From: a virus
IMG/VR virus record: IMGVR_UViG_2716884425_000003
Span: 1 to 48,767 of that record
Strand: one strand, 5' to 3'
DNA length: 48,767 nucleotides
Below are positions 16,680 to 39,486 of the stretch, one piece after another. The notes below the pieces were generated by a model. It saw only the letters and a program-made list of their open reading frames with translations, did no database searches and had not been told where the DNA came from. The first letter of the stretch is position 1; each line of letters begins with the position of its first letter. The position numbers were made by a program, and so were the translations under genes.

Positions 16680-16703
16680 ATAAGATAGAAAGGTATAAGG
16701 AAT

Positions 16704-17225
16704 ATGGCGTCAATATATAACATATCGTCTTGGATAGGTGGAACGGCCTACAAAAAGAATGACATAGTAAATAATAGTGATAAATTTTGGTATGCGTCTC
16801 AAGACAATAGTGACTCAAGCACACCCGCGGTGGGTTCATCTTATTGGAACGGTTACATAAATGTAACTATTGATTCAGTCTCTACAGTCGAGCCCTACTT
16901 TTTCTGGTCACCCTCTTACAATGTCTCGGTAAATCATGAACCTTCAATTCATTCTGTACAATTTGGTGACGGCTACGAACAAAGAATTAAAAAGGGGATA
17001 AATAACAATAGATTAAATTTATCATTAAGTTTTGAAAGTAGAAATGAGCGTGAAGCTGCCGCAATCCTTCACTTTTTACATACAAGAGAAGGGTATGGCC
17101 ATTTTTACTTTAAAGCCCCCAAGCCATACTCCTTGATTAAAAAATTCGTGTGCAAAAGCTTTAATAGCACATTTGTATTTGCTGACAACTATAATATACA
17201 GTGCGAATTTATGGAGGTCTCATAA
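16704..17225 (+). CDS. Lambda gpM-like distal tail protein with an N-terminal CBM5/12-like module
   Basis: 'VQFGDGYEQRIKKGIN'; N-terminal 'WIGGTAYKKNDIV...WYA...P...YW'. Confidence 0.85.
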   Translation: MASIYNISSWIGGTAYKKNDIVNNSDKFWYASQDNSDSSTPAVGSSYWNGYINVTIDSVSTVEPYFFWSPSYNVSVNHEPSIHSVQFGDGYEQRIKKGINNNRLNLSLSFESRNEREAAAILHFLHTREGYGHFYFKAPKPYSLIKKFVCKSFNSTFVFADNYNIQCEFMEVS

Positions 17226-17239
17226 GAGGCATATAAGGT

Positions 17240-18385
17240 ATGGCAAGCAAAATAACTACCACTACAGCGCAGAACACGCTTAAAAGTATATCTAAAGAGG
17301 TAATTTCTTTAGAGTCTAGCTCTATAGTGTCCTTGTACGAAATAGATTTGTCCAGTATTAAGTCTGCCTTAAACCTGCATTCTACTGCATTGCCTCATGA
17401 TGTATTAAGATTTCACAACGAAGAGTCTTTTAATCAAAAAAATATTCTCTTCAGAGGCGAGACTTATTACCCCATGCCCATAATTGCGGATGGTTTCGAA
17501 GTGAACTCTAACGGTTCCTTGCCTAGACCAACACTAACCCTGACGTCATTAAAAGGAGTGCTTGAAGAAAGCGTGTCTAGTAACTATTTTTTATCCCTAA
17601 AAAGAGCCATTCTTGAATTAGAAAATATGATCGGCGCCAAAGTTTCAAGGATTAGGACTTTTTACAAATTTTTAGATAGCGCTAATAACCTAGAGGGCGT
17701 AGGAGACTTTACTAGCGGATTTAACAATAACCCAGAGTTTCCAAAAGAAAGCTATTTCGTAGAGAGAAAGATTAGCGAAGATAAAGACGGCATACAGTTC
17801 GAACTATCCTCTGTTTTAGATATACAGAATTTTAAAGTGCCCGGTAGAGTTTGTTTAGCTAACCGCTGTCCATTTACCTATCGAGGAGAAGGGTGCTGCT
17901 ATGAATTTAAAAATCTAGGTTCTGTTTCTGAGCATGGAGCTACTGAACACCTACCAGACTTTGCCCCACCAATCGCAAATGACGAAAACAAAAACTTAAC
18001 GGGAATAATAACTGGGTCAGACGGCTCAAGCTCGTACGATCCGACAGCCGTAACTTCTAGCTCGGTAATAGATTATATCAGTGATTTACAAAGTAGACCA
18101 AATAATACCTTTACAGCAGGTCAAGTGGTTTACCTTTCGAAAGATGACGTAAACTATTACTACGTAGCTAAGAAAAGCGTACCGAGCGGAAATCCACCAC
18201 CCAATAGTGAATACTGGGAAGCGGATAGATGCTCTAAATCCATGGACGGCTGTAAACTTAGATGGGGCTCCTCGGGCGCGGGCAAAAAATTTACCAACCC
18301 ACCAGCAACAGACAAGGGGCCAGCAAACACGTATTTACCTTTCGGCGGTTTCCCCGGAACAAACACTAGAACAAGCGTCCAATAA
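17240..18385 (+). CDS. Lambda gpL-like minor tail (hub) protein
   Basis: 'LYEIDL', 'GFE...LPRPTL', 'CPFTYRGEGC...DRCSKSMDGCKLR...FGGFPG' (conserved cysteine pattern). Confidence 0.92.
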   Translation: MASKITTTTAQNTLKSISKEVISLESSSIVSLYEIDLSSIKSALNLHSTALPHDVLRFHNEESFNQKNILFRGETYYPMPIIADGFEVNSNGSLPRPTLTLTSLKGVLEESVSSNYFLSLKRAILELENMIGAKVSRIRTFYKFLDSANNLEGVGDFTSGFNNNPEFPKESYFVERKISEDKDGIQFELSSVLDIQNFKVPGRVCLANRCPFTYRGEGCCYEFKNLGSVSEHGATEHLPDFAPPIANDENKNLTGIITGSDGSSSYDPTAVTSSSVIDYISDLQSRPNNTFTAGQVVYLSKDDVNYYYVAKKSVPSGNPPPNSEYWEADRCSKSMDGCKLRWGSSGAGKKFTNPPATDKGPANTYLPFGGFPGTNTRTSVQ

Positions 18386-18720
18386 TGAGATACCTGACCG
18401 AACAAATTAAAAATGATATAACTGAGCACGCTCAGGCGGAATTGCCTAACGAATGTTGCGGCATCATATACAAGTCAGACAATCAATTCAAATCGAAAAG
18501 GTGCGCCAACACCGCTGGTGATAAAAAAAGTAACTTTAGAATAACCGCAAGCGAATATGTTAAAGTATCTAACTTAGGAAAAATAACGGCATACTATCAC
18601 TCGCACACAGAGGATAAGATCGGCGTATTCTCTGATGCAGATAAAAAAGTTAGTAGAGCGCATGGATTACCATTAATAATGTACTGTGTTAAGAATCAAA
18701 AATTTTTAGAATATATTTAA
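18385..18720 (+). CDS. Lambda gpK-like JAB/MPN metalloprotease (JAB domain only)
   Basis: 'PNECCG', 'YHSH...FSDAD' JAMM motif; 111 aa with no NlpC/P60 domain. Confidence 0.88.
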   Translation: MRYLTEQIKNDITEHAQAELPNECCGIIYKSDNQFKSKRCANTAGDKKSNFRITASEYVKVSNLGKITAYYHSHTEDKIGVFSDADKKVSRAHGLPLIMYCVKNQKFLEYI

Positions 18721-19338
18721 ATGGCTATTATTAATTTACATGGAAAGCTAGCAGAGGAAGTTGGTAAAGACCAATGGAATATAGACGTCACTAGTGTCAG
18801 CGAAGCTATCCACGCTATAAACTCGCAGTCAGACGACGCAATAAGAAAATTCTTTATAAGAAAAGAAAATTCATACGCTAGGTATGATGTACTGATTAAT
18901 GATCAAAAAACTACCCCTTCTGATGACAAGGCTTACAATGACCTTACATTAGAAAGAAATGACATAGAACAAATAGACATTGTTCCGTGTTTGGAAGGCT
19001 CATTCATGGGATGGTTTGGTATTCTTGTGGGTGGCGTTGGGTTGGCGACAGCTACGAATCAAATGGCAGCGTTAACCAGTATAGCCTTAATATCAAACGG
19101 TATTAGCACGCTACTATCAGAACCACCCGAGTACCCAGAGCAAAGACAAATAGTAAACCCGAGTTCGGACCCAACACAGTTAGCCAACTCATACTTATTT
19201 AGCGGCCCCGTCAACGTAATAAACGAAGGTGGACCCGTGCCTATAGGTTACGGTAGATTGATAGTGGGCAGTCAGGTAATCATGAGCACCTATGGCACTA
19301 GAAAACTACTAGTTAGAGAGGCTGGAAAACTTAGATAA
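18721..19338 (+). CDS. Lambda gpI-like tail assembly protein
   Basis: 'INLHGKL...EAIHAI...IDIVP' ubiquitin-like N-terminus; 'SYLFSG..N..NEGGPVPIGYGRLIVGS'. Confidence 0.9.
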   Translation: MAIINLHGKLAEEVGKDQWNIDVTSVSEAIHAINSQSDDAIRKFFIRKENSYARYDVLINDQKTTPSDDKAYNDLTLERNDIEQIDIVPCLEGSFMGWFGILVGGVGLATATNQMAALTSIALISNGISTLLSEPPEYPEQRQIVNPSSDPTQLANSYLFSGPVNVINEGGPVPIGYGRLIVGSQVIMSTYGTRKLLVREAGKLR

Positions 19339-19339
19339 A

Positions 19340-24493: not shown

Positions 24494-24494
24494 A

Positions 24495-25220
24495 ATGAAA
24501 AATGCAACTCAAAATTTATTATTAATTATTTTTAAGGATAAAACTCGAGTTACTTATTCTGTACCTGACGGCAAAAGCTACACTGAGATATATAACTACT
24601 CAGCAAAAAACAGAGAGTTCCTGCATCAAGATGTGGCGCACATCAAATTCTTTAAGAACTCCCCATACAACATAGAACAAATTCAATATTACTATGATGA
24701 AGAGTTAGACATTTTTGATGAAAAGTCTTTGTCTATAGACTTTAAAATAGACGAATTCAGAAAACAAAGAAATACTTTACTATATAGCCTAGACGCAGAA
24801 TTCATGAAATCCATGGAAAGTGACTGCGAAGAATGTACTAAACATATAGTAGAAATCAAGAATCACCTAAGAAATATGCCCGATCTCCTAGGTGAAGAAC
24901 TAAAAAAATACAATATAGCAGAAATTCCTACATTCGATTGCTTTAATAATGTATATAATATTAATGTAGTTAATGGCGGAAGCGGATATACAGAGGCTCC
25001 AGAAGTGCTCATAAGCGCCCCAGATCGCTCTGTAAGAGGCTTTGAGATGAAAGCTGAGGCTGTATTGGTAGACGGCACCATAAGTGAAATAAAGGTTACG
25101 CAGGTGGGTAGCGGATACGCCAAAACACCCTCTGTGAGCGTAGCTAAATCTCAAGCTGGAAACACTGCGATAGCTATTGCATCTAAGCCAGAAAATGATA
25201 TATTTAATACAGTAAAATAA
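24495..25220 (+). CDS. Tail fibre assembly-like domain fused to GGSGY-repeat beta domain
   Basis: 'RKQRNTLLYSLD...HLRNMP' plus 'VVNGGSGYTEAPEV' and 'QVGSGYAKTPSV'; ATG 24495 follows the gpJ stop. Confidence 0.6.
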   Translation: MKNATQNLLLIIFKDKTRVTYSVPDGKSYTEIYNYSAKNREFLHQDVAHIKFFKNSPYNIEQIQYYYDEELDIFDEKSLSIDFKIDEFRKQRNTLLYSLDAEFMKSMESDCEECTKHIVEIKNHLRNMPDLLGEELKKYNIAEIPTFDCFNNVYNINVVNGGSGYTEAPEVLISAPDRSVRGFEMKAEAVLVDGTISEIKVTQVGSGYAKTPSVSVAKSQAGNTAIAIASKPENDIFNTVK

Positions 25221-25224
25221 AATT

Positions 25225-26082
25225 ATGCCAATTAAAGTTAACAAAAAGTATGGATTTACAGCTTCTGTAAATGAAGGCTCCAATAAAGTAATCGCTTGCT
25301 CCAAAGCTAACTGGGAACCGGTCAGAACGGGCAGCTTCATTTTACTTGATAAAGACGATACCTTTTATAGAGTTATTGATAAAAGAAAATTTATCTACCA
25401 AAAGAATGTAACAGTCTTAAACACATCCCAACTTAAAATTGCGGAAAATTTAGGCACAATGGTTTCGGTTGATGATGATGTAGCTTTTATGTATTCCGAA
25501 CACAGCGTAACTTCAGTTTCCGTCGCTAGCGGAGGTGAAGGATATCAGGTCGGAGACATTATAACACCAGAGGGAGGAGTGTGTAAGTACAATTCAATTG
25601 ATCAAATCGATGTGCCCGCGCAAATCCAAGTAACTGAGGTGGATAGTGACGGTGCGGTTGTTGCGGTAGAGTTAATCAATGGCGGGCTGTACAGTACTCC
25701 ACCAGCAGACTCTTGCAATGGTAATTCAAATCTAGGGACTGGCGTAACTCTTTCTTTGGCTTCAAGCGTTTCTGATGTAAGCTCGATCGAAGAAAGAACT
25801 GTTAGCTCGATTGATTACACTAGCGACTCGACAGTATTGCACCTCAATCATAACCTTCCGCCCCGAATACAAGAGGGCAGCATAAGAGTTGAGAAGTGGG
25901 AATTAACCATTGACGGAAATTACGTGGGTCAATCTAAGTATAGTGCTAATTACAATATCGTAAAAGACTTTACGCCTCACAATGACATTCCATTAATTCA
26001 CGGCGATCTCGCTAGCAGTCACGTAGTGTTCAACGAGGCGATGGCAATCATCGATCAACGCTTGAAAGATTTAGAATCTTAA
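25225..26082 (+). CDS. Tail-associated structural protein
   Basis: 'ASGGEGYQVGD', 'NGGLY' repeats; last gene of the tail tip operon. Confidence 0.55.
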   Translation: MPIKVNKKYGFTASVNEGSNKVIACSKANWEPVRTGSFILLDKDDTFYRVIDKRKFIYQKNVTVLNTSQLKIAENLGTMVSVDDDVAFMYSEHSVTSVSVASGGEGYQVGDIITPEGGVCKYNSIDQIDVPAQIQVTEVDSDGAVVAVELINGGLYSTPPADSCNGNSNLGTGVTLSLASSVSDVSSIEERTVSSIDYTSDSTVLHLNHNLPPRIQEGSIRVEKWELTIDGNYVGQSKYSANYNIVKDFTPHNDIPLIHGDLASSHVVFNEAMAIIDQRLKDLES

Positions 26083-27074
26083 TTGTGAAGTATTCCGCCT
26101 TGACGTTTCTCTTTTACTAGAGTTGTGGTGATTTGATTTTCTATCAGCGCTGCGAGTTGTTGCGCTCTTTCTGGACTCATTGAGTTATCGCTGGTTACAT
26201 CGCCATTCTGATCAATGCTCACGTTGATTGTGATATTGTTGTTCATTGCTGCTGATCCAGTCTCTCCAACGGCAGCGTTAACTGATTCTGATCCAACGTA
26301 ACCACCATTTGCCATCTTACGAAGTCTACCAGAGTTTAGGTGATGGAAGAAGTCCACGCCATACTTCCTGACTGAATCAGAATTAATAACATATTCACCG
26401 CCCATCAGCATGGAGGGAACGGTATCTTTTTTGTAGCCGCCCTGAGCATCGCTGTCCCAAGCGTTCATCGGATCGTTTGCGAAACGTCGCTCTTGCCTCC
26501 AGTTATTAAACTTATTCTTACCTTTACTCCACAGGTTATTTTCGCTTTTGCCATCAAAAGTACTGCCGTAGCCGCCACCAAACAGTGAACCAGCGAGAGC
26601 CATACCTCCAAACATCCACAAAGAGTTCTGCATTTTCTTTCTCTTTTGAGTTCTCCATGTATCCACGGCTTCTTTCCAATCAGTTATTTCTTGCCTTCTT
26701 TGCGCCCAATAGTCATACAAGTTAGCAACTTTATCCATGCGGAATTGATTTCGTGGATTATCTGGATCAGTAAGGGCCTGCCTAGAAAGCCTTGAGTCAA
26801 TAGCATAACGACTACCCGCGCCGGGCTTGTCGCTGTCATATACAAAAGCGTTTCTTAAGTTGAATTTAGCGTAAGCACCCCTGTTACTCTCGACACTTGA
26901 AACTAAAGAGTTGAGATTAGCTTGAGGATCAGGAGAATCAGAGGCAGGCACCTCACCAGAATTAAGGCTGTTTAAGAAGCTCATTCCGTATTTATTTACT
27001 GAGCTTTTCTTGATTACATATTCGCCCTTAGACAATAGGGCAGGAACGTCATCTTTAACTCCACTTCCCCCCAA
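26079..27074 (-). CDS. C-terminal part of the tape measure protein (separate reading frame)
   Basis: Begins mid-motif with 'GGSGVKDDVPALLSKGEYVI' and ends 'KEKRQGGIL', typical of lambda gpH-like C-termini. Confidence 0.85.
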   Translation of the reverse strand: MGGSGVKDDVPALLSKGEYVIKKSSVNKYGMSFLNSLNSGEVPASDSPDPQANLNSLVSSVESNRGAYAKFNLRNAFVYDSDKPGAGSRYAIDSRLSRQALTDPDNPRNQFRMDKVANLYDYWAQRRQEITDWKEAVDTWRTQKRKKMQNSLWMFGGMALAGSLFGGGYGSTFDGKSENNLWSKGKNKFNNWRQERRFANDPMNAWDSDAQGGYKKDTVPSMLMGGEYVINSDSVRKYGVDFFHHLNSGRLRKMANGGYVGSESVNAAVGETGSAAMNNNITINVSIDQNGDVTSDNSMSPERAQQLAALIENQITTTLVKEKRQGGILHN

Positions 27075-30000
27075 TCACCGCTCCACCAATAGAGAATCGT
27101 TTTATGCCGTCATTGCCAACGACTCCGCCGCTTTTACCGCCAAACATATTTCCTATGGGATTAAATACATATCTATTGACGGCCATCTCAATGATCTTTT
27201 CTTGAGCCATGTTCCCAATGGAATTAAACAAGTCTCCGAAAGCTTCTTTAGAGCTCTTAGTTCCATCGATCAAAGCCTTAAACGCGCTAGTTGCCTCGCT
27301 TCTAAATGTTTGACCCAATCCCTGTAGAGCTATATCACCATCCGCAGCCATTTGATCTGCGCTATATTTAAATGAATTTGCTAAATCAGTTAAGCTGTCA
27401 TCAAGACTTCCGTCTCCACGGTTATACTTCGCAACAGTCTTTTTCCTTTGAAGGTCTGTTAAATTCTTTTCTTCTGTAATAGATAGTTTTTCTAACTTTT
27501 GTCTGTCTTTAAGAAACTGAATTTGCCTAGTAAGCCTATCAATGTTTTCCTTGTGATCCGAGCTTGCCTTGTCATTTGCCTCCCTTGCAGTAACTTCTTT
27601 ATTTTGGAACAATGCAGCCAATACCTTATTATCTTTTACTGCTTTTTCTAACTCCACCTTCGCTTTGACCATCTCTTGACTCATCTTGGAGTTTTTATCT
27701 ATAAAATCTATAGTTTTGAGGAAGGTAGATAACTCCGCTTTTAATTGCTCAATTTTTTGAGGTTCGACGCCCATAGTTTGTAGAGCTAAGTCATCAGCGG
27801 ATAGCATCATTTTGGCCAAGTCTCTATTTTCTTTCAAAACTTCCGGAACAACTTGACCATCTTGATTAAATATTCTGGTATTGAAGCCAAAGTCATTTGC
27901 GCCCATCACGTATTTTTCTTTATCGCCCATAAACAATTGAGCGTTTGCTCTGCTTTGAGGATCACCAAGTAACTTACTAATGTTTTGCTCGTATCTTGTA
28001 GACAAGAGCTCTTGCATGTTAGTTTCATATGGGCTAGCTCCCATTGCTAGATTTTCTAGCTTGTCTTTAATTTGAAGTCTTAGGTCTGTTTTTTCTCTAT
28101 CCTTTAATTTGTCATAATTTTCTCCCAGAATCTGTTCCAATACGCTGTCGGGATCGTTTACCGCCAAGGCAGCATCGCTTATGCTTTGGTAGCCATACGC
28201 AGCTGCAAAAGGATTAAAGGCGCCACTACCTCCGCGCGGGAAAGCGGTGGTCCGAACAGAACTACCGTACGTTGTCGTGCGTTGTGAGGGCGGCGTTTTT
28301 GCGCTAAATTCACTTCGACCGCGCAGCATCTCAAGAAAGTCCATTGCTGGACCGGCATGCCTAAACTGTGGGTCATGACTAAGATCTATCTGCTTTTGAT
28401 AATCGCCTCTGGGACCCTCTACGGTCCTTGTGCTAAGTAGTCTTGCTACTCCTACAAATCTTTCTAGTCTATTTCTCTGGCGGCTAATATCATGTCCCCG
28501 CCCCTTGAGTGTTTCACTTTCGCCCTTGTCCCCTCGATCAAAAGCAGCTTGATTAGCCATTAAATTTTCCGCTTCTGCTCTTAAAAGCTTAATCACTTGA
28601 CCCTCTTGTTTTGGGTCCATCAACATTTTTTCAACTTCGTCGATACTTTGCTTACCAAAGAAACTCATCATATCTTTTTGATTTAGTTGGTCGGCGTAAG
28701 CGCCGGTAGAAGTCTGGACCCTCAGAGGAAGACCACCGGCCCCCGCCCTTCTGAGCATATCTTTACCCATGTCATTCATCCTTTGGGTATAGCGGTTCGC
28801 GGTGGCACCTCGCTCGTTCGCATTAAGCATCGAAGTGATTTCGCCCAAGGGTCTCATTGGTTTTCCCGTCCCTATGTCTACTCTATCGTTATCGGCGTTC
28901 CGCGGATCAAGGAACTCACCAATCCCCGCTTGTCTAGCAAGCTCTTTTTCTATGATTTTTTCAGCGCCGGCAACTAACTTGTTATCTTTTATAAGGCTCG
29001 TTATAGGAATATTTCCAATTTTAAAATTACTTAGTCCCGATATCGTACCGTCTGGAGCGATGCCCAAACCGCCCCCTCGGCCTTCATTTACACTTTTAGC
29101 AACTTGGGTGGCAATATCTTTGTCTTTGGCTGCGATCCTAATACTTTTTTGATAAGACAGAAGGGCATCTAAATTACCAGCGACCAAGCCAAAACCAGTT
29201 TTATTGGTTTCATTTATTCCATGTGTATTTAGATTTTGAGTTTGACCAAGAGTATCTACAATGTGCTGAAGTCTTTCTCTGCTGTTTATTTGCCTGATGT
29301 CAGATATTCTAATATTATCTCTATTTGCATCAGAGACTTTTTTCTGCACTCCTTGTTGCAGTTGTGCATTTATCCTTGCATTTTCCATCGCAGCGTTTGC
29401 GACTGCGTCTCTTTCCTTTATGCTGTCGATTTGAGTGCTATCGATTAAATCCTTGGTAACCTCTGCCCCAACTTCTGCGCTACCTTTTATGGCGTGAGAG
29501 ATGTTACTTATATTTAAGCCTGCACCCTTTAAGGCTTCTGAAAAAGCTCTTGCGTTTTTGTCAACCAGACTGCTGCTTTGTGATCTTAAAATTTCCACCG
29601 CAACCGCTTGCTGTTGTCTCATAACCCGAACGTTTTCGGGTAGGTCTTGCATTTTTAATTGCGAAGCAATTTGTTCTAAAGCTATATCGTCCGCTTGTCC
29701 CCTAGCGGCCTCGAAAGAGTCTTTTAAGTCTTGGGGTAACTGCCCGCCCATTTGTATTCTGGTTATATCTTCCGCTTCTGTTAGTTGCTGTTGAATATCT
29801 AGGGTTCTACCAGCATAAGCCCTACTTACTAAAGGCTGAAATGCTCCCGGTCCCAAGCGCTTGCCTCCTCCCACACCGCCCTCTCTTAGGTTCATATTAT
29901 TAATTAGAAAATCTAGAGTAGAAAATGCGGCACTACCTTGGTCAATCATGGCAGTATTGCGGTCTGTTCCGTATTGCGACAATGCAAATTTATCAAAGGA

Positions 30001-33000
30001 TTTTTGAAGTTTTTCTATGTTAGAAGAAAGCCCACTGATTCCTCTATCACCCATTCCTCCTTGAGGTCCGCCGAAGGAAGCTATTCTTTCTTGTAATCTT
30101 ATTCCTTGTTCAGCAAATTGACGTTGTTGCTCAAGCAGAAGTCTTTCCATTTGACCCTGCTCTATAATTTCTTGAAGCTTACCGGCCGTTTGAGAGTTTA
30201 AGCCCTCAAGTTCAGATGCTATTCTAGCGCCGATTAAATCAGCGTTATCTACTTGTGCATCTTTTAAAGCGTTTACTATATCTCTTGTTCTTTGCGGGTC
30301 ATTTCTAAACTCTTCCGGATTATCTTTTAGCTCTTTTAAGTGACGCTCCATAATTGGAGTAAGCATCGTTTGAAGCTGCTGATTTTTAGCTATATCGTCT
30401 AAAAGCTTTTGATTTTTTTGCTCGGTATCTACTGATCCGGATAAAATTGTTCCGAGCTTATTAGTCGCGTCAATAAGTTCTTTTTGTGTTATTTCAAATG
30501 CGTCTGCCGTAGCCTTGGTCATAACTTCACGCATTTTTTTCAACCGGTCGGCTTCTTGCTTTCTAGATTTTATATCAAAATCTAACCTGCTTTTTTCTAC
30601 TCCGCCCAAGAAGGGGTCAACGTTAGGTCTGAATGCTTCCATTGAGGACATCGCATAATTCACCCTACTTTCTTTTCTAAAAGATTTGGATTTAGTTAGT
30701 GTTGAAATTCTTTGCTTTTCAATCGCTAGGTTCTGCTTCAGAATTACATTTGTAATTTTTGTCTGAGCCGCCATTTTTTGCATCGTTTGGGAAAACCTGT
30801 TATTAATTGCCTGCAAGTTTGCCGTATGCTTAGCCATTTTGTTAAATTTATCAATGCTCTCTCTCGCATTCAATAACTCATCCGCTAAGTCTTTCGAAGC
30901 TTTGGCTCCGTCAAATTGATTTTTGTTAACTCTTTCTAACTGGTCTATATATTCGGGCGGTACGCCTAAGTCTTCTAAATGTTGACTAAGCACAAGTATG
31001 TCAGCACTGTTAGCCTTATCACCCATGTTATTTACTAACCGACTAATTGCGTTCAGTTTTTGTATTCCCTCTTCTCCCTTGAGTCCTTTCGTATCGACCT
31101 CTCTCATAATTGACCCAGTAAAGCTTTTAAGTCTTCTTTTACCTTCTTTACTATCGTCAAAAACATCGTCCGCTGACTGAAATCTTCCAGATTCTCTTCC
31201 TATTCCTGTAATTGCATTTCCTACGTCTCTAGATAAGTTGACGAACCAACCGCGCTCTTCATCCATTTCGCCTTCAAAAGCTTTTTGTCTTTCTGCTATC
31301 CTTTGCTGTTGCTGCAAGTCCTTTTGCATATCTGCGAAAGACTCTTTAATTTCTTCGACGCTCCCCGCGGCGTCTTTAAATTTAGCTCTTATATCTGAAG
31401 GCAAAGTCATGAACGCCTCTTCGACAGCCTCTTGTCTTTTCACTCTATCTTCAGCCTTCATATTTGGGTCAGTTAAAGATGCCTCAAAAGCGTCTAGTGC
31501 CGTAAGATATGACTGACTGCTATTATTAAAGTTAGTTAATTTTTCTGTAGCACTTTGTAAATTAGCTTCTAATTGTTTGGTGGGATCTTTAGCTCCTAGT
31601 GCAGCTTGCGCTATACCCATTACTCCACCAGCTACTGCACCAACCCCTGCTCCTATTGGTCCAAACATAGCGCCCATAGAGGCCATACTGGCTGCAGTTT
31701 CCAGTCCGCCTACTGCAGCTTGCGCGGTTTGGTTATCTCCAGCTAATTGTCTACCTATGCCACCTATCATTGGTGCGGCCATGAGCATCCCCGGACCCAT
31801 TCTTTGCATGGTTCTGCCTAGTCTGCCGCCCGCTCCACCTTTACTTCTTACGTCTGCGCCGCCTATTTGCCCTCTTGCTCCGGCTTGCTCTTTATTATAT
31901 TTTCTAGCTAAATCTCTTTGTGCGTTAGCTAATGACTTTTCAGTTTGGGCGGTAGCTTTAGCTGCTTTAGATGCGTTTCGGGTTGCTGTGATATTTTCGG
32001 CTTTGGCCCGCCTGCCTTTTTGCATGTCAGCTATTTCCTGCTGTAAGGCTTTTGTGTTTCTTTCTCTACTTTTTCTTTGATTTTTTAAAACTTTATCATA
32101 CTCTGCTCTTTGCTCTTTACCCATGGCACCACGACTAAGATTACCCTGAGCATCTAGCGCTCGATCCTTACCGCCTTTAGTTTTATCACCGTACTTTGCC
32201 CTAAAGGCTTCGTCAGCTTTTGCTTTTGCGTTCGCTTCGTTCTGCTGACGTTTTGCTTGTAGTTCAGATTGTTTACTTTGAATATCTCCTTTGCTGGCGG
32301 TTTTTTGTTGTGAAGCTTTTTGCGCCTCTTGTTCGGCTTTTTTAGCGGCGTCGATAGCTCTCTTTTCTGCTTCTACTCTTTCGTTCAGTTCCTTCTCTAA
32401 GGTTGCGCCCTCTTCTTTTAATTCTTTAAAATTGCTTCTAAGATCATTTGCCGCAAAAGCGAGAAGTCCTAAGGATCCAGTAATAACCGTTGCATCGAAT
32501 CCTGTTCCTTGAAAATTTGGAATGTGACCGTCGGCGGCCACTTTATCTTGCATTGATTTAGAGTTTTTAATTGCCGCATTTAAACCTTCGGGATGATCCC
32601 TCATTACATCGCCAAAGTCTTTTTGTGTTTTGCCATCTCTTACGTACAAACCAACTTTAGAATTGTAATCTAAAACGGGTTCTCCACCCATTGCGGCTTC
32701 AGTTTTTAATGCGTCTGTCAATGGCGAGAAGTTGGGTATGAATCCTGCACTAGCTCCTCTAGCAGTTTTTTTAGTCTTTTTATCTAAATTAGCATATTGA
32801 GGATAAAACTCAGTTTCTATCTTGTGAGCCATGCTTTCTAGATTAGCTCTAGAATCACTATTTTTATAATCACCAACAATTAGGCCCTCAGCGCCAAATT
32901 GATTCATAACTGCTATTGCATTTTTTACATTACCAGTTGTGGTATTAACATCCCAAGTAGCAGTTTGTTTATCAACACTTTTTTGAAAAGCTGCATCCAT

Positions 33001-36000
33001 CGCCGCTTCAAATACTGCGCCTGTAGCAGCACCCATAGCTCCAGCGTTAAAATATTTACTTACATCTGGATCTGTATTTAGTGGGTTGTTTCTAAATTGA
33101 TTAGCGTATTCAGTCGCTACCCTTTCCATTTCTTCCCTGACTTTATCCTCAAGACTGTCTATGACTTGATCAGGTATATTTGGTTCAAAAGCATTTATGC
33201 GATACTTTCTCATACCGCCCTTTTGACTGCGGCTACCTTTTACTGGAGCATCGTACTGTTTTTTACCTCTTTTCCCCGGTGGTAAAAGTAATCCAACCCT
33301 AGCTGTTTCATCCTTAAGTTTAGCTTTGTCAAAATTTGGAATAAAACCTCTAGAGAATACGTCTAGCCCGCGCTGCCTCTCCCTTAAAGCTTGAGCGGCG
33401 TTTCTCGAATCAAAACCAACTTCACTATTAAAGTCACTTAAAGTATTAACTCTCTTAGCGCTATATTCTGATATCTCTCCACCTCTTCGACGTGTCTGCT
33501 CGGTTATAACTGACTGAAGCTTGTCTAAGTGCGCACCCGCTACAGCATCTCCCGCGTCAGCTTTTGCTTTTAACCTACTTCTAAGTTGCCTAAGGGAACT
33601 GCTATTATTCTCGTATAAAGTCTTTAAAAATAAACTACCGATTTGTTTTGTTTTAAGCTCGGGCTTAGATTCGATTGGATAATTTCTTCCGGTCTTAGAC
33701 TTCGTCCCTAAATCAACAGGCATCTTGGCGAGCTCTCCCCTACCACTGGGAGCAGCGAACCTTTGCTTCCAAGAGAAGTTTCCCGGCCTTTTCGCAAGGG
33801 CTTCTTCCATTTGCGCTCCCTTTATATGAGCGTTCTCTCCTCTTCCTTCGAGGAACGGAGCTCTTTCCGCACCAGTAATTCCCGAAAGCTGACCCATTGT
33901 TCTAATTCGGACTTTTTCTCCCGGTCTCAAAGCAGAACCCAAAATAGGCTGAAGCCAAGTTGGAACCCCCTGACTTTTCATTAAGTCTTCTCTAGAAGCA
34001 GAAAGTATATTCGTCATACTTCCCGTAGACCCCTTGCCTTTCCTATCAAAGATAGTTCGCATCGAGGTAAGAACGTTTAATAAATTGGGCACAAAACCCC
34101 TGCTCGCGTATGGATCAAATCCGTGTTGACCTATAAAATCTTTTTTGTAATTTTTGCCAGCTTTACTATCTTCAGGCGGAATGATTGCCTGCTGAGACAT
34201 GCCCGGAAATTGCTTAACTTGTTCAGCGGTATTATAAGTTACAGTTCCGTAATTAGGTATAAAGGTTTTCTTTATGTCACCGGGTTTGTAGCCTCCAGCC
34301 AAAGCACCCATGTATTCGCTCATGTTTGCAAAGTTGGGAATGTGACCTAAAAACTTTCTTTTACCACCATAAGTAATTTCGCTTTCTCCACTAGACTTAT
34401 CTATTTTTGCACTAAAGCCTTGAGCTTGAGCTCTAAAGCCGGAGCCTTGAGCTAACTTGTCTATTTGCTGCCTTAATAAAATTTCCTGTTTAAGCGCGTC
34501 TAATATTCTTTTTTCTACCTGCTCTCGCGTCTGCTCTTTCCTTATAATGGAATCCACCAAGGCGGGATTTGCCGCTAAAGTATTTTTAATTTGCTCCTGT
34601 AAAACCTGTTGCTTTTGAGCGTTCCTATTTAAGTTTGCAAAGTCTTTAACTGACTGCCCCAAGAACTTCACAAAATCTAAAAACAATTTACCAATAATTG
34701 TACCCAAGGCGATAAAACCCGGTCCGGATAAAATATTACCAAAAGACTTTAATATATTTTGAGCTAGCTCTCCGCCAAACTTCTGACCATCCTCCTTACT
34801 AAATCCAAGTAGCTCACTAACGTCACCGAATAAAGTAAAGTCTTTCTTAAGAGCGTTAAAGCCTTCGAGTATTCTTCTAAACAGTGGCTCGAAACTTAAC
34901 TTGCCGATCTCAGCGCCGACTTGCGTTAGGTTCTGTATTGATTCATTTATTAACGCAGATAAAGTTTTATTTAATTCTGCATTTCTCTTGATAGCTTCAT
35001 CGGTAGATTTATTAGCGACATCTAAGGCATTCGAGTAGACGGAGTAATCACTCTTTAAATCTTTAAGGATAGCCTTTAAGATGTTCATCTGGTACACACC
35101 ACCAATTAACTCAGCGGTTGAAGCTTTAAGCTGGGGATTTAAAGTGTCATAAGTTTTAGCGAACTCCTGCAGTACTTGCATAGCGGGCTTCATGTTACCC
35201 TGCAGGTCTTTAACCTCGACGCCCAAGCGCTTCATTTGGTTAATTACTTCAGTACGCTGAATTCTAGTGAAAATAGTTTTAAGTGAGTTACCAATAACGT
35301 TACCACCACGAGCGGTAGTCTGCTGCACCGAGGTGACAATAGCCACCATCTCATTAAACGTAACATTAACACTATCCGCACTAGAGCCCACTCTTCGAAT
35401 AGCCTCGGCCAAGTCATTCGTGCTAACAGCAAACGCTGCGTCGACGTTCGCTAATCTATTAATAATCTGCGTTGAAGTTAAAGCTGAAGAGCTAAAAGAG
35501 TTAATCGCCGCGGTCAAAGCGTTCACGGAATCAGCCGCGTCCATACCAGAAAGCCTAGTTAATATCAAAGCATCTCTTGTGCGCAACAAAGTCTTCTCCA
35601 TGGAAAGACCTTGACGGGCAAACTCAGTCGCAGCCTTACCCACCTCAAAAAAGCTTTGGCCAGTCTGGGATGCTACATTAAAAAGTTCGGCTCCGAACTT
35701 TTGTAAATTACGGGTAGAAGCACCCATAATGACATTAATATCAGTAAGAGTCTTTTCTACTTCGACGGTAGCTCTAGCCATCTCTTGGAAAGCGCGAGTT
35801 ACACCCATTAAAATTCCAGCGGAAGCAGTAAACGCAATAACACGTGCGTTAGAAGCGTCTAACGATTTTTGAAACTCTGTGACAGAACCGGTAATCTTAC
35901 CCAAGGGCTGAGTAAATTTCCTGTGATCTATACCCTTAAGATTAAGTTGTGTTCGTTCTGCTTTTTTTACAAAGCGCGCGAGGTCTTTTTCGGCTTTATC

Positions 36001-36045
36001 AAGCCTAAGCCTCAAATCCATTACCATTTGGTCATCTCTAGCCAT
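27055..36045 (-). CDS. Tail tape measure protein (TP901-family N-terminal domain), 2996 aa; about 3321 aa if joined to 26079-27074
   Basis: 'ATEFARQG', 'TARGGNVIGNSLKTIF', long helical/coiled-coil character, a Gly/Ala hydrophobic segment, and position after the tube and chaperone genes. Confidence 0.93.
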   Translation of the reverse strand: MARDDQMVMDLRLRLDKAEKDLARFVKKAERTQLNLKGIDHRKFTQPLGKITGSVTEFQKSLDASNARVIAFTASAGILMGVTRAFQEMARATVEVEKTLTDINVIMGASTRNLQKFGAELFNVASQTGQSFFEVGKAATEFARQGLSMEKTLLRTRDALILTRLSGMDAADSVNALTAAINSFSSSALTSTQIINRLANVDAAFAVSTNDLAEAIRRVGSSADSVNVTFNEMVAIVTSVQQTTARGGNVIGNSLKTIFTRIQRTEVINQMKRLGVEVKDLQGNMKPAMQVLQEFAKTYDTLNPQLKASTAELIGGVYQMNILKAILKDLKSDYSVYSNALDVANKSTDEAIKRNAELNKTLSALINESIQNLTQVGAEIGKLSFEPLFRRILEGFNALKKDFTLFGDVSELLGFSKEDGQKFGGELAQNILKSFGNILSGPGFIALGTIIGKLFLDFVKFLGQSVKDFANLNRNAQKQQVLQEQIKNTLAANPALVDSIIRKEQTREQVEKRILDALKQEILLRQQIDKLAQGSGFRAQAQGFSAKIDKSSGESEITYGGKRKFLGHIPNFANMSEYMGALAGGYKPGDIKKTFIPNYGTVTYNTAEQVKQFPGMSQQAIIPPEDSKAGKNYKKDFIGQHGFDPYASRGFVPNLLNVLTSMRTIFDRKGKGSTGSMTNILSASREDLMKSQGVPTWLQPILGSALRPGEKVRIRTMGQLSGITGAERAPFLEGRGENAHIKGAQMEEALAKRPGNFSWKQRFAAPSGRGELAKMPVDLGTKSKTGRNYPIESKPELKTKQIGSLFLKTLYENNSSSLRQLRSRLKAKADAGDAVAGAHLDKLQSVITEQTRRRGGEISEYSAKRVNTLSDFNSEVGFDSRNAAQALRERQRGLDVFSRGFIPNFDKAKLKDETARVGLLLPPGKRGKKQYDAPVKGSRSQKGGMRKYRINAFEPNIPDQVIDSLEDKVREEMERVATEYANQFRNNPLNTDPDVSKYFNAGAMGAATGAVFEAAMDAAFQKSVDKQTATWDVNTTTGNVKNAIAVMNQFGAEGLIVGDYKNSDSRANLESMAHKIETEFYPQYANLDKKTKKTARGASAGFIPNFSPLTDALKTEAAMGGEPVLDYNSKVGLYVRDGKTQKDFGDVMRDHPEGLNAAIKNSKSMQDKVAADGHIPNFQGTGFDATVITGSLGLLAFAANDLRSNFKELKEEGATLEKELNERVEAEKRAIDAAKKAEQEAQKASQQKTASKGDIQSKQSELQAKRQQNEANAKAKADEAFRAKYGDKTKGGKDRALDAQGNLSRGAMGKEQRAEYDKVLKNQRKSRERNTKALQQEIADMQKGRRAKAENITATRNASKAAKATAQTEKSLANAQRDLARKYNKEQAGARGQIGGADVRSKGGAGGRLGRTMQRMGPGMLMAAPMIGGIGRQLAGDNQTAQAAVGGLETAASMASMGAMFGPIGAGVGAVAGGVMGIAQAALGAKDPTKQLEANLQSATEKLTNFNNSSQSYLTALDAFEASLTDPNMKAEDRVKRQEAVEEAFMTLPSDIRAKFKDAAGSVEEIKESFADMQKDLQQQQRIAERQKAFEGEMDEERGWFVNLSRDVGNAITGIGRESGRFQSADDVFDDSKEGKRRLKSFTGSIMREVDTKGLKGEEGIQKLNAISRLVNNMGDKANSADILVLSQHLEDLGVPPEYIDQLERVNKNQFDGAKASKDLADELLNARESIDKFNKMAKHTANLQAINNRFSQTMQKMAAQTKITNVILKQNLAIEKQRISTLTKSKSFRKESRVNYAMSSMEAFRPNVDPFLGGVEKSRLDFDIKSRKQEADRLKKMREVMTKATADAFEITQKELIDATNKLGTILSGSVDTEQKNQKLLDDIAKNQQLQTMLTPIMERHLKELKDNPEEFRNDPQRTRDIVNALKDAQVDNADLIGARIASELEGLNSQTAGKLQEIIEQGQMERLLLEQQRQFAEQGIRLQERIASFGGPQGGMGDRGISGLSSNIEKLQKSFDKFALSQYGTDRNTAMIDQGSAAFSTLDFLINNMNLREGGVGGGKRLGPGAFQPLVSRAYAGRTLDIQQQLTEAEDITRIQMGGQLPQDLKDSFEAARGQADDIALEQIASQLKMQDLPENVRVMRQQQAVAVEILRSQSSSLVDKNARAFSEALKGAGLNISNISHAIKGSAEVGAEVTKDLIDSTQIDSIKERDAVANAAMENARINAQLQQGVQKKVSDANRDNIRISDIRQINSRERLQHIVDTLGQTQNLNTHGINETNKTGFGLVAGNLDALLSYQKSIRIAAKDKDIATQVAKSVNEGRGGGLGIAPDGTISGLSNFKIGNIPITSLIKDNKLVAGAEKIIEKELARQAGIGEFLDPRNADNDRVDIGTGKPMRPLGEITSMLNANERGATANRYTQRMNDMGKDMLRRAGAGGLPLRVQTSTGAYADQLNQKDMMSFFGKQSIDEVEKMLMDPKQEGQVIKLLRAEAENLMANQAAFDRGDKGESETLKGRGHDISRQRNRLERFVGVARLLSTRTVEGPRGDYQKQIDLSHDPQFRHAGPAMDFLEMLRGRSEFSAKTPPSQRTTTYGSSVRTTAFPRGGSGAFNPFAAAYGYQSISDAALAVNDPDSVLEQILGENYDKLKDREKTDLRLQIKDKLENLAMGASPYETNMQELLSTRYEQNISKLLGDPQSRANAQLFMGDKEKYVMGANDFGFNTRIFNQDGQVVPEVLKENRDLAKMMLSADDLALQTMGVEPQKIEQLKAELSTFLKTIDFIDKNSKMSQEMVKAKVELEKAVKDNKVLAALFQNKEVTAREANDKASSDHKENIDRLTRQIQFLKDRQKLEKLSITEEKNLTDLQRKKTVAKYNRGDGSLDDSLTDLANSFKYSADQMAADGDIALQGLGQTFRSEATSAFKALIDGTKSSKEAFGDLFNSIGNMAQEKIIEMAVNRYVFNPIGNMFGGKSGGVVGNDGIKRFSIGGAVIGGKWS

Positions 36046-36086: not shown

Positions 36087-37121
36087 TTAGTCGTGTAAAT
36101 CTATGAAATCGTCCATAGAAAGCTTACCGCCCTTTTGAGATGCCACATCCATTAAATCTATCGTATTTGCACCACCTTTTTTGTAGCCTATAGCCTCTAA
36201 GTCTTCCGACGTCGCGCCGACCAAAGTAGATGCGCCAGATTTATCTCCAGCCCTAGCCTCGACTTTTTCCATAAGTTCATCAGCGTTTTTGCGCATTTCG
36301 TAAAACTCAATCATTTTATCTGGATCATTTCTTATCTCATCGGGCGGTTGAGCTTTAGACTCTTGCGCTAAATTCTTGAAGTATCTACCAAAAGCAAATA
36401 ATTCTGCCTGAAAAAAGGACAAGTCAATTACAGGCTTACCATAGAAAGTTAGCGGGTTGTCATCACACAAGTAAAAGTAATTACAAAAAAACGGCATTAA
36501 TGATATTTTTTTAATTTCTTCTATTGTTAAAAACATTGTACTATCATTATAGTCTCTTGTTAATTGTCCTAGCTGCTTGTCTGTAACATGATTAAAAACT
36601 TCATCAGATATAGATAATTCTTTAAGAGTGGTATCTTTATATATAGCTTTTTGTATATAAAGTTCATTGGCGCGCTTGTGGGCATAAGCCTCTGCGGTAA
36701 AGCCCATCATCTCCATCTTTTTTATTTTTAAACCCTCAACTTCAGTCTCTGCCTCTTCTATTTGTTTTGCTAGTGCTTGTATTTGAGATTTTAAATACAT
36801 TTTGCTTTTTGTGGCTTTTAAGTTATCGGCAAATTGAATTTTTGTTTGTAACTCCTTGTCTTCTTCGCTTGTCCAAAGCTTTTCTTCATTTAAATATTCT
36901 ATTTGGTCTTTTTCGGTAGGCAGCCCCAGAGATTTAGCTTTCTTAAAGCAGCTGTCATACAGCTTGTCAGTTCTTACATTATCATAGAGACTAAGGTGCT
37001 TTACGTAGTGTACGCCCTCATCAAGAATATCGCTTGTAATTTCAGTGTACCCGTTGAGTACATCATTGAAGACGACTTTTAGATCGGTTTCTGTAGCTTT
37101 TTTTATAGGCTCTTCTGACAT
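36087..37121 (-). CDS. Putative tail assembly chaperone 2
   Basis: Helical protein immediately upstream of the tape measure gene; assigned by synteny only. Confidence 0.5.
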   Translation of the reverse strand: MSEEPIKKATETDLKVVFNDVLNGYTEITSDILDEGVHYVKHLSLYDNVRTDKLYDSCFKKAKSLGLPTEKDQIEYLNEEKLWTSEEDKELQTKIQFADNLKATKSKMYLKSQIQALAKQIEEAETEVEGLKIKKMEMMGFTAEAYAHKRANELYIQKAIYKDTTLKELSISDEVFNHVTDKQLGQLTRDYNDSTMFLTIEEIKKISLMPFFCNYFYLCDDNPLTFYGKPVIDLSFFQAELFAFGRYFKNLAQESKAQPPDEIRNDPDKMIEFYEMRKNADELMEKVEARAGDKSGASTLVGATSEDLEAIGYKKGGANTIDLMDVASQKGGKLSMDDFIDLHD

Positions 37122-37125
37122 AAGT

Positions 37126-37154
37126 AAAAAAGGGACCTACCTTGTAGGCCCCCT
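37126..37154 (-). terminator. Intrinsic terminator/attenuator between the two putative chaperone genes
   Basis: GGGGCCUAC-AAG-GUAGGUCCC followed by U6. Confidence 0.8.
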
Positions 37155-37180
37155 ATAAGGATTAAATGAGTAATTTTAAA

Positions 37181-38029
37181 TTAATCTTCAGAAGGTTTTT
37201 CTTCGCCTTCTTCCTTAACAGCTTCTTCTTTGGGAGCTTCTTCAGTTGGAGCTTCTGCGTCTTCAAACAAGACATCAGTGCCTTGCTCGTCTTGTTGTTC
37301 AGCAAACTTGATTAACTCCTTGAACTGTTCGGGGTCACTAGTTTTACTCACATACCAAAAACTCACGTAATAGAAGAATTTATTAATACACTCAGTTACC
37401 CAATCTTCCTCTTGCTCTTCCATTCTATCATAAACCGCAAGCCTTTCTTCATAGCTTCCTTCTCCGAAAAATGGAGTCTCTTGATCTTCATTAATCTGGT
37501 GGCCTAGATGTAGAACCCACCACAAGATAGTTCTATTACGAGCTCTATTTTCTGCCGTTTGATCGTACAAAGAAGACTGTTGCATTTCAAATTCTTGGAT
37601 TCTGTCTCGAGATTCTCTAATAAAATCTTGGCAATTTAAAAATCTAGCTTGCTCGTCGGGAGTTCTTTCGGCCTTGGTCTTTAGCGCTAGCTTTTGCAAC
37701 TCAACCTGTTTGTCAAAAATTTCATTATACAGAGTATTCCATTCATCTTTTTCTTTCTCTCCTAGTGTACCGCCATCGTTACTAAATCTTTTTTGTAGTA
37801 AGGCTCTAGTTAGCAGTCCTGCTTTTATCCCCTTGGAAAGTTCTACCCCGTAAAAAAGATCTGCTTCGTCAAACAGTTTTCTCGTTGGTTTGCGAAGAAA
37901 AAAGTTTTTATCAACGACTTTTTTAACTTCTTTGGTGGTTGTGACCTCTTCGCCTTTATCATTCTTGGCGGTCTCGGTCTCTTTGACCATCTCCTCTTTT
38001 GGGATAACAAATTCAAATAATTTTTTCAT
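37181..38029 (-). CDS. Putative tail assembly chaperone 1
   Basis: Acidic helical protein between the tube and tape measure genes; assigned by synteny. Confidence 0.5.
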   Translation of the reverse strand: MKKLFEFVIPKEEMVKETETAKNDKGEEVTTTKEVKKVVDKNFFLRKPTRKLFDEADLFYGVELSKGIKAGLLTRALLQKRFSNDGGTLGEKEKDEWNTLYNEIFDKQVELQKLALKTKAERTPDEQARFLNCQDFIRESRDRIQEFEMQQSSLYDQTAENRARNRTILWWVLHLGHQINEDQETPFFGEGSYEERLAVYDRMEEQEEDWVTECINKFFYYVSFWYVSKTSDPEQFKELIKFAEQQDEQGTDVLFEDAEAPTEEAPKEEAVKEEGEEKPSED

Positions 38030-38361: not shown

Positions 38362-39486
38362 TTATTGAGAGTTACCGCTCAAGAATAAGCCAACGTCGGT
38401 AGCACCGGACGAACCAATCTGAGCACTCCAGTTAAGAGTCACAGTTTCGTTGTCACCGATACCTTGTGAGAAGCTTTGGCTGTCAAGCTTGGCCTTCTTC
38501 ATTACGATAGCCATGTGGGCGCCGCCGGCACCATTTTTCATGTTGACGATAATCTCTTGGTCAGCGTTGGTATCAACAATATCAACCAAGTTACCAGCGC
38601 TCATCTCACTCATGATTGCATCTACGCTCAGCGTAGTAGTAATCGGGAACGAGATAACACGAGCAAATGCAAATCTACTTCCAAGCTTATTGATCGGCTC
38701 TCTAGCGAGATCAACCGAGCAGTTGAAGCTTTGAATGTGCATATTGGTGTAGTTCGCTCCGCCCTGAGTAGCTGGAAGCGTAAGGGTAACGTCACCCGGC
38801 TTAACAACGCTTGTTCCGTCTAAGGACTCACCAGACGAGTTGTAACCGCTCAAGCGATACACCTCGGTCTTAGCTGTGCCAGCTGCAGCGTCAATTGCGG
38901 GGATTTTACCAGTGGCTGCACCATCATTGTTTCTGTCGAACTTGATGTTCAAGGCTTCTGCAGTCATGCTCGCAGTTGGGAATCCACCCACGGCTGCTTC
39001 GCAAGTCCAGTTGGACAAGAAGGCGTTACCGATACCGATAACAGCATTATCGCCCGTAGCAGCGGCAGTACCAGTAACAACGTCTTTCATATCGTCACCG
39101 TCTTTACCAACGCGAACATAATAGTTTCTCTCGTCAGCGCCATTGGTTAAAATGTCAGACAAAATTCCAGAGAAGTTAGCGCTACTGTGAGCAATGCCAC
39201 TAGTAACAGTAAGACCAATAACGTCTTCATTGTACCAGTTACATGCGTACCACGAACTGTCGAAGTTAACGGTTGGACTCTCCAGAATGATTCTGTCGAT
39301 AGCTGCCAATTCACCGAATTGGTTTACATCAGTACGAGCGACGTCAAACCCATAGTTTGCGCTCTGTACTCGTTTAAGTTGAGTAGGCTGCGTTGCTCCG
39401 GACTCATTACCATAGGCATCATCAGTGCCTTTGTCTGGTCCAGCGTACACGGCCTTACTTTGATAAATTACTCTATTTCGTGCCAT
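38362..39486 (-). CDS. Major tail tube protein
   Basis: 'LKRVQSANYGFDVARTDVNQFG' and a second similar strand pattern 'IQSFNCSVDLAREPINKLG'; Gly/Ala/Ser-rich; followed by a strong terminator; synteny. Confidence 0.75.
   Translation of the reverse strand: MARNRVIYQSKAVYAGPDKGTDDAYGNESGATQPTQLKRVQSANYGFDVARTDVNQFGELAAIDRIILESPTVNFDSSWYACNWYNEDVIGLTVTSGIAHSSANFSGILSDILTNGADERNYYVRVGKDGDDMKDVVTGTAAATGDNAVIGIGNAFLSNWTCEAAVGGFPTASMTAEALNIKFDRNNDGAATGKIPAIDAAAGTAKTEVYRLSGYNSSGESLDGTSVVKPGDVTLTLPATQGGANYTNMHIQSFNCSVDLAREPINKLGSRFAFARVISFPITTTLSVDAIMSEMSAGNLVDIVDTNADQEIIVNMKNGAGGAHMAIVMKKAKLDSQSFSQGIGDNETVTLNWSAQIGSSGATDVGLFLSGNSQ

Follow-up and report, generated by a model that had tools for sequence, protein, structure and literature searches.

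The tape measure protein of a siphophage carries exchangeable modules between copies of a G-F-I-P-N-F peptide

The tape measure protein (hereafter TMP) of the uncultured marine phage in virus record IMGVR_UViG_2716884425_000003 contains an internal cassette, in which modules of variable sequence stand between copies of a short peptide of the type G-F-I-P-N-F. The stretch analyzed here, the window, comprises the first 48,767 bases of this 136,548-base record, for which completeness is estimated at 79%. We are confident that the cassette is a fixed frame around variable modules, and that this cargo moves between lineages with its boundaries at the motif. We further propose that the motif is a cut site and that the cut would free probable enzymes when the TMP is ejected. 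For this whole chain, from the fenced cassette through exchange at the motif to release on ejection, we estimate a probability of roughly one half.

Within the window, the TMP gene is part of the tail region of a siphophage, which also includes genes of the lambda-like types M, L, K (JAB), I and J. The main open reading frame (ORF) of the TMP lies at 27055..36045 on the minus strand and encodes 2,996 residues as sequenced, compared to about 3,330 in intact relatives. It matches PF10145, the PHROG TMP families and TIGR01760. A TP901-type domain had been predicted ahead of the motifs, and it is indeed found at the N-terminus (35110..35673, minus strand, residues 125-312; PF10145 E = 8e-29), well above the curated cut-offs (101 bits versus 33.2 for PF10145, 115 versus 28.8 for TIGR01760). 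The gene is very long, follows the tail tube gene and genes in the chaperone position, and has the lambda-like tip genes nearby. TMPs of the TP901 family occupy the tail lumen, set tail length and are ejected. With a rise of 0.15 nm per residue, the tail would be about 500 nm long. Among relatives TMP length ranges from 1,826 to 5,198 residues. Two hydrophobic stretches, residues 438-463 and 1460-1479, flank the cassette.

The original prediction described five copies of G[FH][IV]PN[FL], starting at G567, G650, G900, G1101 and G1173, and all five are present at these residues and at the corresponding nucleotides on the minus strand. Motif 1 (GHIPNF, residues 567-572) is encoded at 34330..34347, motif 2 (GFVPNL, 650-655) at 34081..34098, motif 3 (GFIPNF, 900-905) at 33331..33348, motif 4 (GFIPNF, 1101-1106) at 32728..32745 and motif 5 (GHIPNF, 1173-1178) at 32512..32529. 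Motifs 2 and 4 form the left and right exchange boundaries and motif 5 ends the cassette. The module lengths of 77, 244, 195 and 66 residues were likewise as claimed. From protein composition 2e-4 copies would be expected by chance, for a pattern that was defined after the fact. The motif is absent elsewhere in the six frames of the 136,548-base genome. Under a relaxed pattern the only addition genome-wide is a partial sixth copy, FIPNY, at residues 595-599 (34249-34263) inside the first module. Motif 1 lies at residues 530-579 in 110 of 116 tallied proteins. In 112 fetched loci, all 28 motif copies in ORFs of less than 1,500 residues lie in truncated TMPs.

The motif is conserved as a peptide and not as DNA. 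Over 250 proteins its consensus reads [YG]-[AK]-[AS]-x-G-[FLYH]-[IV]-P-N-[FY]-[AS], and the Asn position is occupied by Asn in 1,040 of 1,108 matches, by Ser in 34 and by other residues in 34 (Arg in 3). The five copies of the window share nine invariant DNA columns, all at first or second codon positions, and no third position is invariant. Among 158 copies every synonymous codon is used at each motif position. A DNA repeat or a site-specific recombination site was therefore rejected, as the invariant columns follow the codons and synonymous codons vary. Third positions are nevertheless more alike between copies of the same gene than codon bias predicts (identities of 0.54, 0.87, 0.50, 0.65, 0.81 and 0.80 versus a background of 0.35, 0.71, 0.43, 0.40, 0.75 and 0.71). 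The coding sequence of the motif therefore probably also serves as microhomology.

A search with residues 545-1200 found 402 proteins among 7,978 candidates, and the 120 listed, which include the window protein, were compared. A single-sequence search found no relative loci, whereas alignment-based searches did. At least four motif copies are present in 113 of these 120 proteins: four in 88, five in 16 and six to twelve in 9, the remaining 7 having two or three. The usual layout is motif, module A, motif, one module, motif, module B, motif, and the window phage has one extra module. Module A (34099..34329, minus strand, 77 residues) and module B (32530..32727, minus strand, 66 residues) form the conserved frame. 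A profile of the motif-A-motif unit finds at least 477 clusters at 50% identity; among the 150 matches listed, 137 were new proteins with 0 to 14 motifs each. In the alignment of 44 sequences E1116, G1120, G1132, D1150, P1152 and G1154 of module B are invariant, and the module is predicted to be folded (predicted local distance difference test score, pLDDT, of 74-90). A shared E..A.GG-like start had been noted for the two outer modules. Both do have a Glu and a Gly-Gly near their start, but the spacing differs and HHalign gives a probability of less than 1%, so that A and B as paralogues are unsupported. Together, 183 unique cassettes yielded 617 modules, which BLAST groups into 68 clusters; two clusters arose artificially from the internal FIPNY. 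One motif stands at every module edge, irrespective of module length, which ranges from 16 to more than 600 residues.

Exchange of the cargo is seen at the level of single residues. We compared pairs of four-motif cassettes that agree in the lengths of A and B. A and B were at least 90% identical in 109 pairs, which are not independent of each other, and the middles were unrelated in 67 of these. Across the exchange edge identity is 1.0 at the last residue of motif 2, drops to 0.39 and 0.15 directly thereafter and recovers to 1.0 where the closing motif begins with its Gly. Furthermore, we mapped the cargo on a FastTree tree of the 430 residues upstream of the cassette (126 rows, that is 130 four-motif cassettes of the 183 minus 4 duplicates). 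The 26 cargo types require 62 changes on this backbone, compared to 25 as the lowest possible number and an average of 96.5 after shuffling. On the same tree A, B and the 250 downstream residues require 27, 19 and 33 changes, with minima of 24, 17 and 33, the thresholds that define a type differing by region.

The same boundaries appear in environmental sequences. Four marine metagenome runs, each from a different study, contain contigs that match the cassette region. Contigs of runs X2 and X11, from two studies, match both flanks and have a different sequence at 32740-33321, i.e., between motifs 4 and 3; within the swapped module only an 86-base patch over a conserved helix is retained. The contig of run X8 keeps the window version. 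At motif 3 the match ends at 33331 in one marine contig and at 33321 in two others, and the joint at 32740 recurs in two runs. Whole modules are also gained. A module insertion distinguishes L063 from L064, duplication together with the trailing motif is seen for modules 3/9 and 4/10 of L096 (L096:10280-14986) and for three tandem paralogous modules at L024:10325-12340, and module order differs in P0090 and P0092. Relatives thus differ in the number and identity of their modules but retain the motif as well as modules A and B on either side; the inter-motif segments are neither invariant nor collinear, and the swappable cassette put forward in the original prediction holds. No match to the cassette was found among 50,697 phage records searched for cultured relatives, and no RNA holder was listed. 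Eight contig matches were rejected as host evidence, the bins being metagenome-assembled and of mixed taxa.

The two cargo modules of this phage are predicted, by residue pattern, to be candidate nucleases. Module 2 (33349..34080, minus strand, 244 residues) is a lineage-restricted extra cargo, with 11 members among the 617 modules, and its candidate PD-(D/E)xK residues E747, D778, E792 and K794 are invariant in 10 close sequences. Module 3 (32746..33330, minus strand, 195 residues) belongs to the commonest cargo family and has E1013, D1032, D1059 and K1061 as candidate catalytic residues. In 44 sequences of this family, which are merely 12-29% identical to module 3, G1009, F1012, E1013 and K1061 are invariant, while position 1032 is D or N (36 and 8) and position 1059 D or E (39 and 4). 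In the PD-(D/E)xK pattern a helix bearing an E precedes a D and a strand bearing (D/E)-x-K, after which comes another helix, and we take the layout of both modules to be of this kind. An E...D...(D/E)xK pattern occurs in 117 of 117, 45 of 45 and 8 of 11 family members, compared to 6-8% of shuffled sequences, the pattern having been drawn from the same sequences. While the residue layout is alike, neither module gave a profile or fold match to the superfamily. Module 2 has no Pfam, NCBIfam, Atlas or fold match, and the ESM Atlas returned no usable match for either module. Profile matches in PDB were short and to lectins only, and were judged spurious.

A model built from 44 sequences has an overall pLDDT of 69.9. 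Module 3, with a core pLDDT of 70-90, and module B appear folded, and all three modeled motifs lie in low-confidence unstructured linkers. In module 3 only short strands are seen at the D and DxK positions. A comparison of this model with known folds gave best VIA Z scores of 4.6 and 4.3, for helical parts only, and no Foldseek match with E below 0.001, a result that excludes no fold. Modeling the entire cassette with 9 sequences gave a poor result (pLDDT 45.5), and fold searches with it were empty. The structure and profile check proposed for the modules thus gave folded bodies for module 3 and B, but named no fold or family. Among proteins of similar length module 2 had 1 match and the module-3 profile had 9; as stand-alone copies these were discarded, since the 8 sequences inspected resemble TMP fragments, 5 of them with motif or frame sequence. 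The module-3 family has no orphan copy elsewhere in this genome.

In relatives the cargo includes recognizable enzymes. Of 15 proteins, 2 have an SNase match and 1 a DUF7178 match that exceed the Pfam cut-off, in each case between two motifs, and SNase is the only firm enzyme identity among the cargo. Enzyme signatures are enriched in 232 modules: HExxH occurs in 8 compared to 0.5 in shuffles, a nuclease pattern in 85 compared to 14.5, and a GNAT pattern in 9 compared to 3.8, the latter with Pfam support below the cut-off. Matches to ParB_N and WYL_2 are weak, and 13 further multi-motif proteins gave only a PGDYG match below the cut-off. All of the 142 proteins compared have basic cargo, with a median charge of +4.7 per 100 residues compared to +0.7 and +0.6 outside. 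By eye, kinase-, ADP-ribosyltransferase- and P-loop-like modules were seen at L022:1457-2353, L024:12359-13741 and L032:2215-2739 and in P0061, and no family model confirms them. Such cargo is not claimed, because the signatures are not enriched over shuffles (16 versus 11.7 for kinase, 6 versus 6.6 for P-loop, 0 versus 1.3 for ADP-ribosyltransferase). The effector cargo originally proposed is hence borne out as enzyme-like in relatives (SNase, HExxH enrichment), while for the modules of this phage it stands by residue pattern only.

We propose the following mechanism. A fixed frame of motif-A-motif and motif-B-motif, with the peptide G-[FHY]-[IV]-P-N-[FYL] as motif, encloses one to many variable modules. 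These move between lineages with their boundaries at the motif, presumably by homologous recombination in A, in B and in the 18-nt motif coding sequence. As known TMP biology suggests, the chain would lie extended in the tail tube and be ejected ahead of the DNA. A protease may then read the motif, most plausibly as the non-prime side of a site cut after N or F, either during tail assembly or on entry. The freed modules, in this phage two predicted nucleases, would refold and could attack nucleic acids or proteins of the host ahead of phage gene expression.

By analogy, the motif is likely a cutting signal in the TMP. Cleavage has been shown for T5 and lambda TMPs only, and the lambda site and catalyst are given as unknown in the accessible text of PMC12617516. 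T5 pb2 is cut after R1127, according to the part of PMC10038345 available to us. The T5 context reads SFVPR|AEGG. GFIPR|AEGG is found in 2 of 31 T5-like loci and YGR|AS.G in 2 of 4 Vibrio phage records. F-[VIT]-P precedes the T5-type cut, and the motif shares G-F-[IV]-P with these sites. Ordinary TMP tails of this family contain nine-residue doublets such as NAGGRIPGFSDGG, and because of these doublets G-F-I-P-N-F resembles, by eye, the stretch between two Gly-Gly units. The motif also occurs at the position where cleavage takes place elsewhere. In 10 of 119 relatives the motif lies within 500 residues of the TMP C-terminus, where these proteins have no ordinary GG...GEYV module, and these C-terminal copies sit where T5 and lambda are cut. 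By the patterns used, 25 of the 119 have neither a C-terminal motif nor an ordinary module. A motif-A-motif unit in place of GG...GEYV was seen in P0060, P0072, P0075, P0076, P0081, P0085, P0096, P0109 and P0111.

Several observations weigh against cleavage at the motif and release of enzymes. The Arg at which T5 is cut is missing from the motif, where Arg occupies 3 of 1,108 positions compared to 1,040 for Asn, and AxGG follows the motif in just 11 of 1,074 copies, although what T5 relatives retain is R|AxGG or R|ASxG. The module A profile matches T5 or ordinary Gly-Gly modules with a probability of less than 1%, which is not significant; the control of ordinary versus T5 modules reached only 2%, so the power is low. 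Of 1,074 copies, 83 have Gly where a ubiquitin-like domain would be cut. No dedicated protease for the motif was found in this phage, and no head protein of the genome carries the motif. In each junction class of 181-187, 2-12 junctions have a lost or degraded copy, several of these being artefacts of window placement. Finally, fold, Pfam, NCBIfam, PDB and Atlas searches name no nuclease for modules 2 and 3.

Two proteases of this phage, JAB and the prohead protease, had been suggested as readers of the motif. Both turned out to be weak candidates, the head proteins lacking the motif and the JAB substrate being encoded next door. A candidate for the head protease is encoded at genome positions 70057-71568. 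A gpK-like JAB protein (18385-18720; Prok-JAB E = 1e-8) is followed by a gpI-like protein (18721-19338) with a ubiquitin-like N-terminal domain (phrog_32; weak Urm1/MoaD-like matches), together at 18385..19338 on the plus strand. According to a conference report, as available to us (PMC12908700), gpK cleaves gpI. Because its own ubiquitin-like substrate adjoins and the motif is without a terminal Gly, JAB is a weak candidate for cutting the TMP. The tails of gpI-like proteins read D-I-[VI]-P-x-[IVL]-x-G in the window and in loci L016-L108, and their first five positions can be aligned in register with F-I-P-N-F and with F-V-P-R of T5. As judged by eye, gpK-like proteins consist of the JAB domain alone in the window, L005 and L013, and have an additional NlpC/P60-like part in L019, L082 and L094.

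In the strongest competing explanation, which we consider rather unlikely but serious, the TMP stays uncut and the motif serves for docking or as a clasp, so that the globular inserts are kept unfolded and in register in the tube, the cargo working while tethered. Readers of the motif would then be tail assembly chaperones or the same motif in sister TMP chains. Two unusually large genes conserved upstream of the TMP fit this role. They lie between the tail tube-like gene and the TMP (36087..38029, minus strand), and are candidate tail assembly chaperones by position and thus candidate motif readers. Of the 112 fetched loci, which include some duplicates, 98 and 95 give tblastn matches to the one and the other gene, and neither has a family match above cut-off in Pfam, PHROG and NCBIfam scans. 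The hydrophobic F-I-P-x-F core, the finding of the motif where the helical pattern breaks and the failure to find a protease also agree with docking, and uncut delivery applies to two polyvalent proteins, the N4 virion RNA polymerase and ArdC, as far as the consulted part of PMC5512222 goes. However, a boundary signal fits better than an evenly spaced chaperone site, because the motif stands at every module edge whatever the module length, from 16 to more than 600 residues. The likeness of the motif to the T5 cut context also speaks for cleavage.

Alternatively, the motif could be nothing but a recombination anchor, a relic of module duplication whose 18-nt sequence is kept for in-frame insertion while the peptide is a tolerated linker. 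Insertions and duplications do bring the motif along, as in L096 and in L063 versus L064, third positions are more alike within a gene than the background, and the window encodes a UvsX/RecA-like recombinase. Yet all synonymous codons are used at each position, no third position is invariant in the window copies and Asn is retained in 1,040 of 1,108 matches; moreover, homology in A and B suffices for swaps of the middle module. We regard this explanation as improbable. Even less probable is self-cleavage without a separate protease, in which the Pro-Asn-Phe turn would break by Asn cyclization, possibly aided by A or B. Asn-dependent autocleavage is known from FlhB/YscU, the Asn is nearly invariant here, A and B with their invariant acidic residues always flank the cassette, and no protease was found. 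On the contrary, Ser replaces Asn in 34 copies (1.2 by chance) at real junctions of several lineages, and the motifs were modeled as loose linkers rather than strained turns. Least of all do we favor inserts that are mere spacers, inert or acting as decoys, by which the length of the tail is adjusted or the surface exposed to host defenses altered: the modules of this phage lack a fold or family match and TMP length varies from 1,826 to 5,198 residues, but coincidental enzyme-like residues would not account for E, D and K being invariant at 12-29% identity, for SNase above cut-off and HExxH enrichment in relatives, or for a post-cassette region that follows the backbone tree while the cargo does not.

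If cleavage at the motif is right, a wider interpretation may be offered. A large clade of siphophages from aquatic habitats could use its TMP as a programmable injection magazine, in which any protein fenced by G-F-I-P-N-F is packed unfolded, cut free and delivered before the DNA, by a processing step related to the maturation of T5 pb2 and lambda gpH. Both the magazine and this kinship are tentative, and we hold this interpretation to be clearly short of even odds. The motif would then provide a handle on TMP cleavage and a loading tag of six residues that occurs in nature.

The usual view of TMPs is that they act as rulers, form channels and carry an enzyme for the cell wall at most. In the TMP described here cargo is exchanged at a hot spot that obeys a fixed grammar, spread over at least 477 clusters at 50% identity. 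Its cassette works like a polyvalent protein that is carried in the tail and has a fixed junction code. No published description of the motif or the cassette was found in a search mostly without subscription papers and bioRxiv supplements, and the available parts of PMC7824862 and PMC9503650 do not describe the cassette. Polyvalent proteins, as presented in the accessible text of PMC5512222, likewise combine many unrelated conflict domains in a virion-borne polypeptide of mosaic architecture. Their repertoire (zincin peptidase, GNAT, ParB, nucleases) overlaps with that of the cassettes, and proteolytic release was proposed there. In contrast, the carrier here is the TMP, the word 'tape' occurring 0 times in the main text of PMC5512222, and one fixed peptide and two fixed frame modules fence the modules. 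The zincin peptidase, frequent but not universal in polyvalent proteins, is absent from most cassettes, including this one, which has no HExxH in residues 567-1178. Polyvalent-specific Pfam models gave no match except PGDYG below the cut-off in whole-protein scans, which can miss small domains.

The cassette also resembles T5 pb2 and lambda gpH, TMPs that are ejected on infection, with the T5 cut freeing an enzymatic fragment (PMC10038345 and PMC12617516, in their available parts). By this analogy the cassette cargo would enter the host with the DNA. Shared features are the Gly-Gly motif family at the C-terminus of this TMP and the lambda-like M, L, K, I and J tip genes. While T5 pb2 and lambda gpH have one cut near the C-terminus, this TMP has five internal motifs with exchangeable cargo and neither Arg nor AxGG. 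Enzyme domains are likewise embedded in TMPs with peptidoglycan hydrolases, as covered in the accessible part of PMC12617516, and a glucosaminidase (PF01832) is present in relative P0013. Those hydrolases act on the cell wall and lie near the C-terminus, whereas the cassette occupies residues 567-1178, is basic and holds module types directed at nucleic acids or proteins. MuF-fused and polymorphic toxin cassettes, in what is available of PMC5512222 and PMC9503650, similarly join a conserved carrier with a variable effector swapped by recombination. In the TMP, however, the cargo is internal and possibly multiple, and the carrier is a tail protein. Should the modules be set free, these phages would deliver an exchangeable set of enzymes through the tail before any gene expression, an early route to counter-defense or host takeover. 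Furthermore, the repeated motif makes the question of TMP cleavage testable, the lambda site and catalysis being stated as unknown in the consulted text of PMC12617516.

The last part of the TMP is separated from the main ORF by a frameshift near nt 27070, in a G-run (27066-27075) that detaches the last ~330 residues. The frameshift follows a Gly-Gly motif of the ordinary type, FSIGG (27066..27096, minus strand), and the C-terminal part, with two GG...GEYV modules and matches to PHROG TMP families, continues in another frame at 26079..27074 on the minus strand. The run has one base more than in relatives, including a 92%-identical contig, and the extra base is retained in the deepest run, which may itself be the source sample; the base may be a mutation or have arisen in amplification. 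In the closest proteins, P0003-P0005 (3,325-3,336 residues, cassette identity 86-98%), both parts are continuous and the reading frame is uninterrupted. A programmed frameshift is therefore unlikely, because close relatives are open through this position.

The tip genes M, L, K, I and J (10998-26082, plus strand) converge on the minus-strand TMP operon (26079-48675), an arrangement common to relatives. The protein encoded at 14874-15572 looks conserved and has no Pfam, PHROG or NCBIfam match; we presume a resemblance to Rad52/Sak-type annealing proteins, and such a product could aid short-homology exchange. By eye, the genes at 15562-16635 and at genome positions 75051-76247 resemble the tail tube-like gene (38362-39486). 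Large Thr/Pro-rich proteins with PTxT repeats are encoded near both window ends (44252-48172 and 1-60), and several collagen-like GPTG repeat genes lie at genome positions 54533-60677. For a siphophage, there are many sugar-nucleotide, glycosyltransferase and sulfotransferase genes, located at 3083-4174, 8356-9456, 10998-11645 and 13639-14841 and at genome positions 83517-96070.

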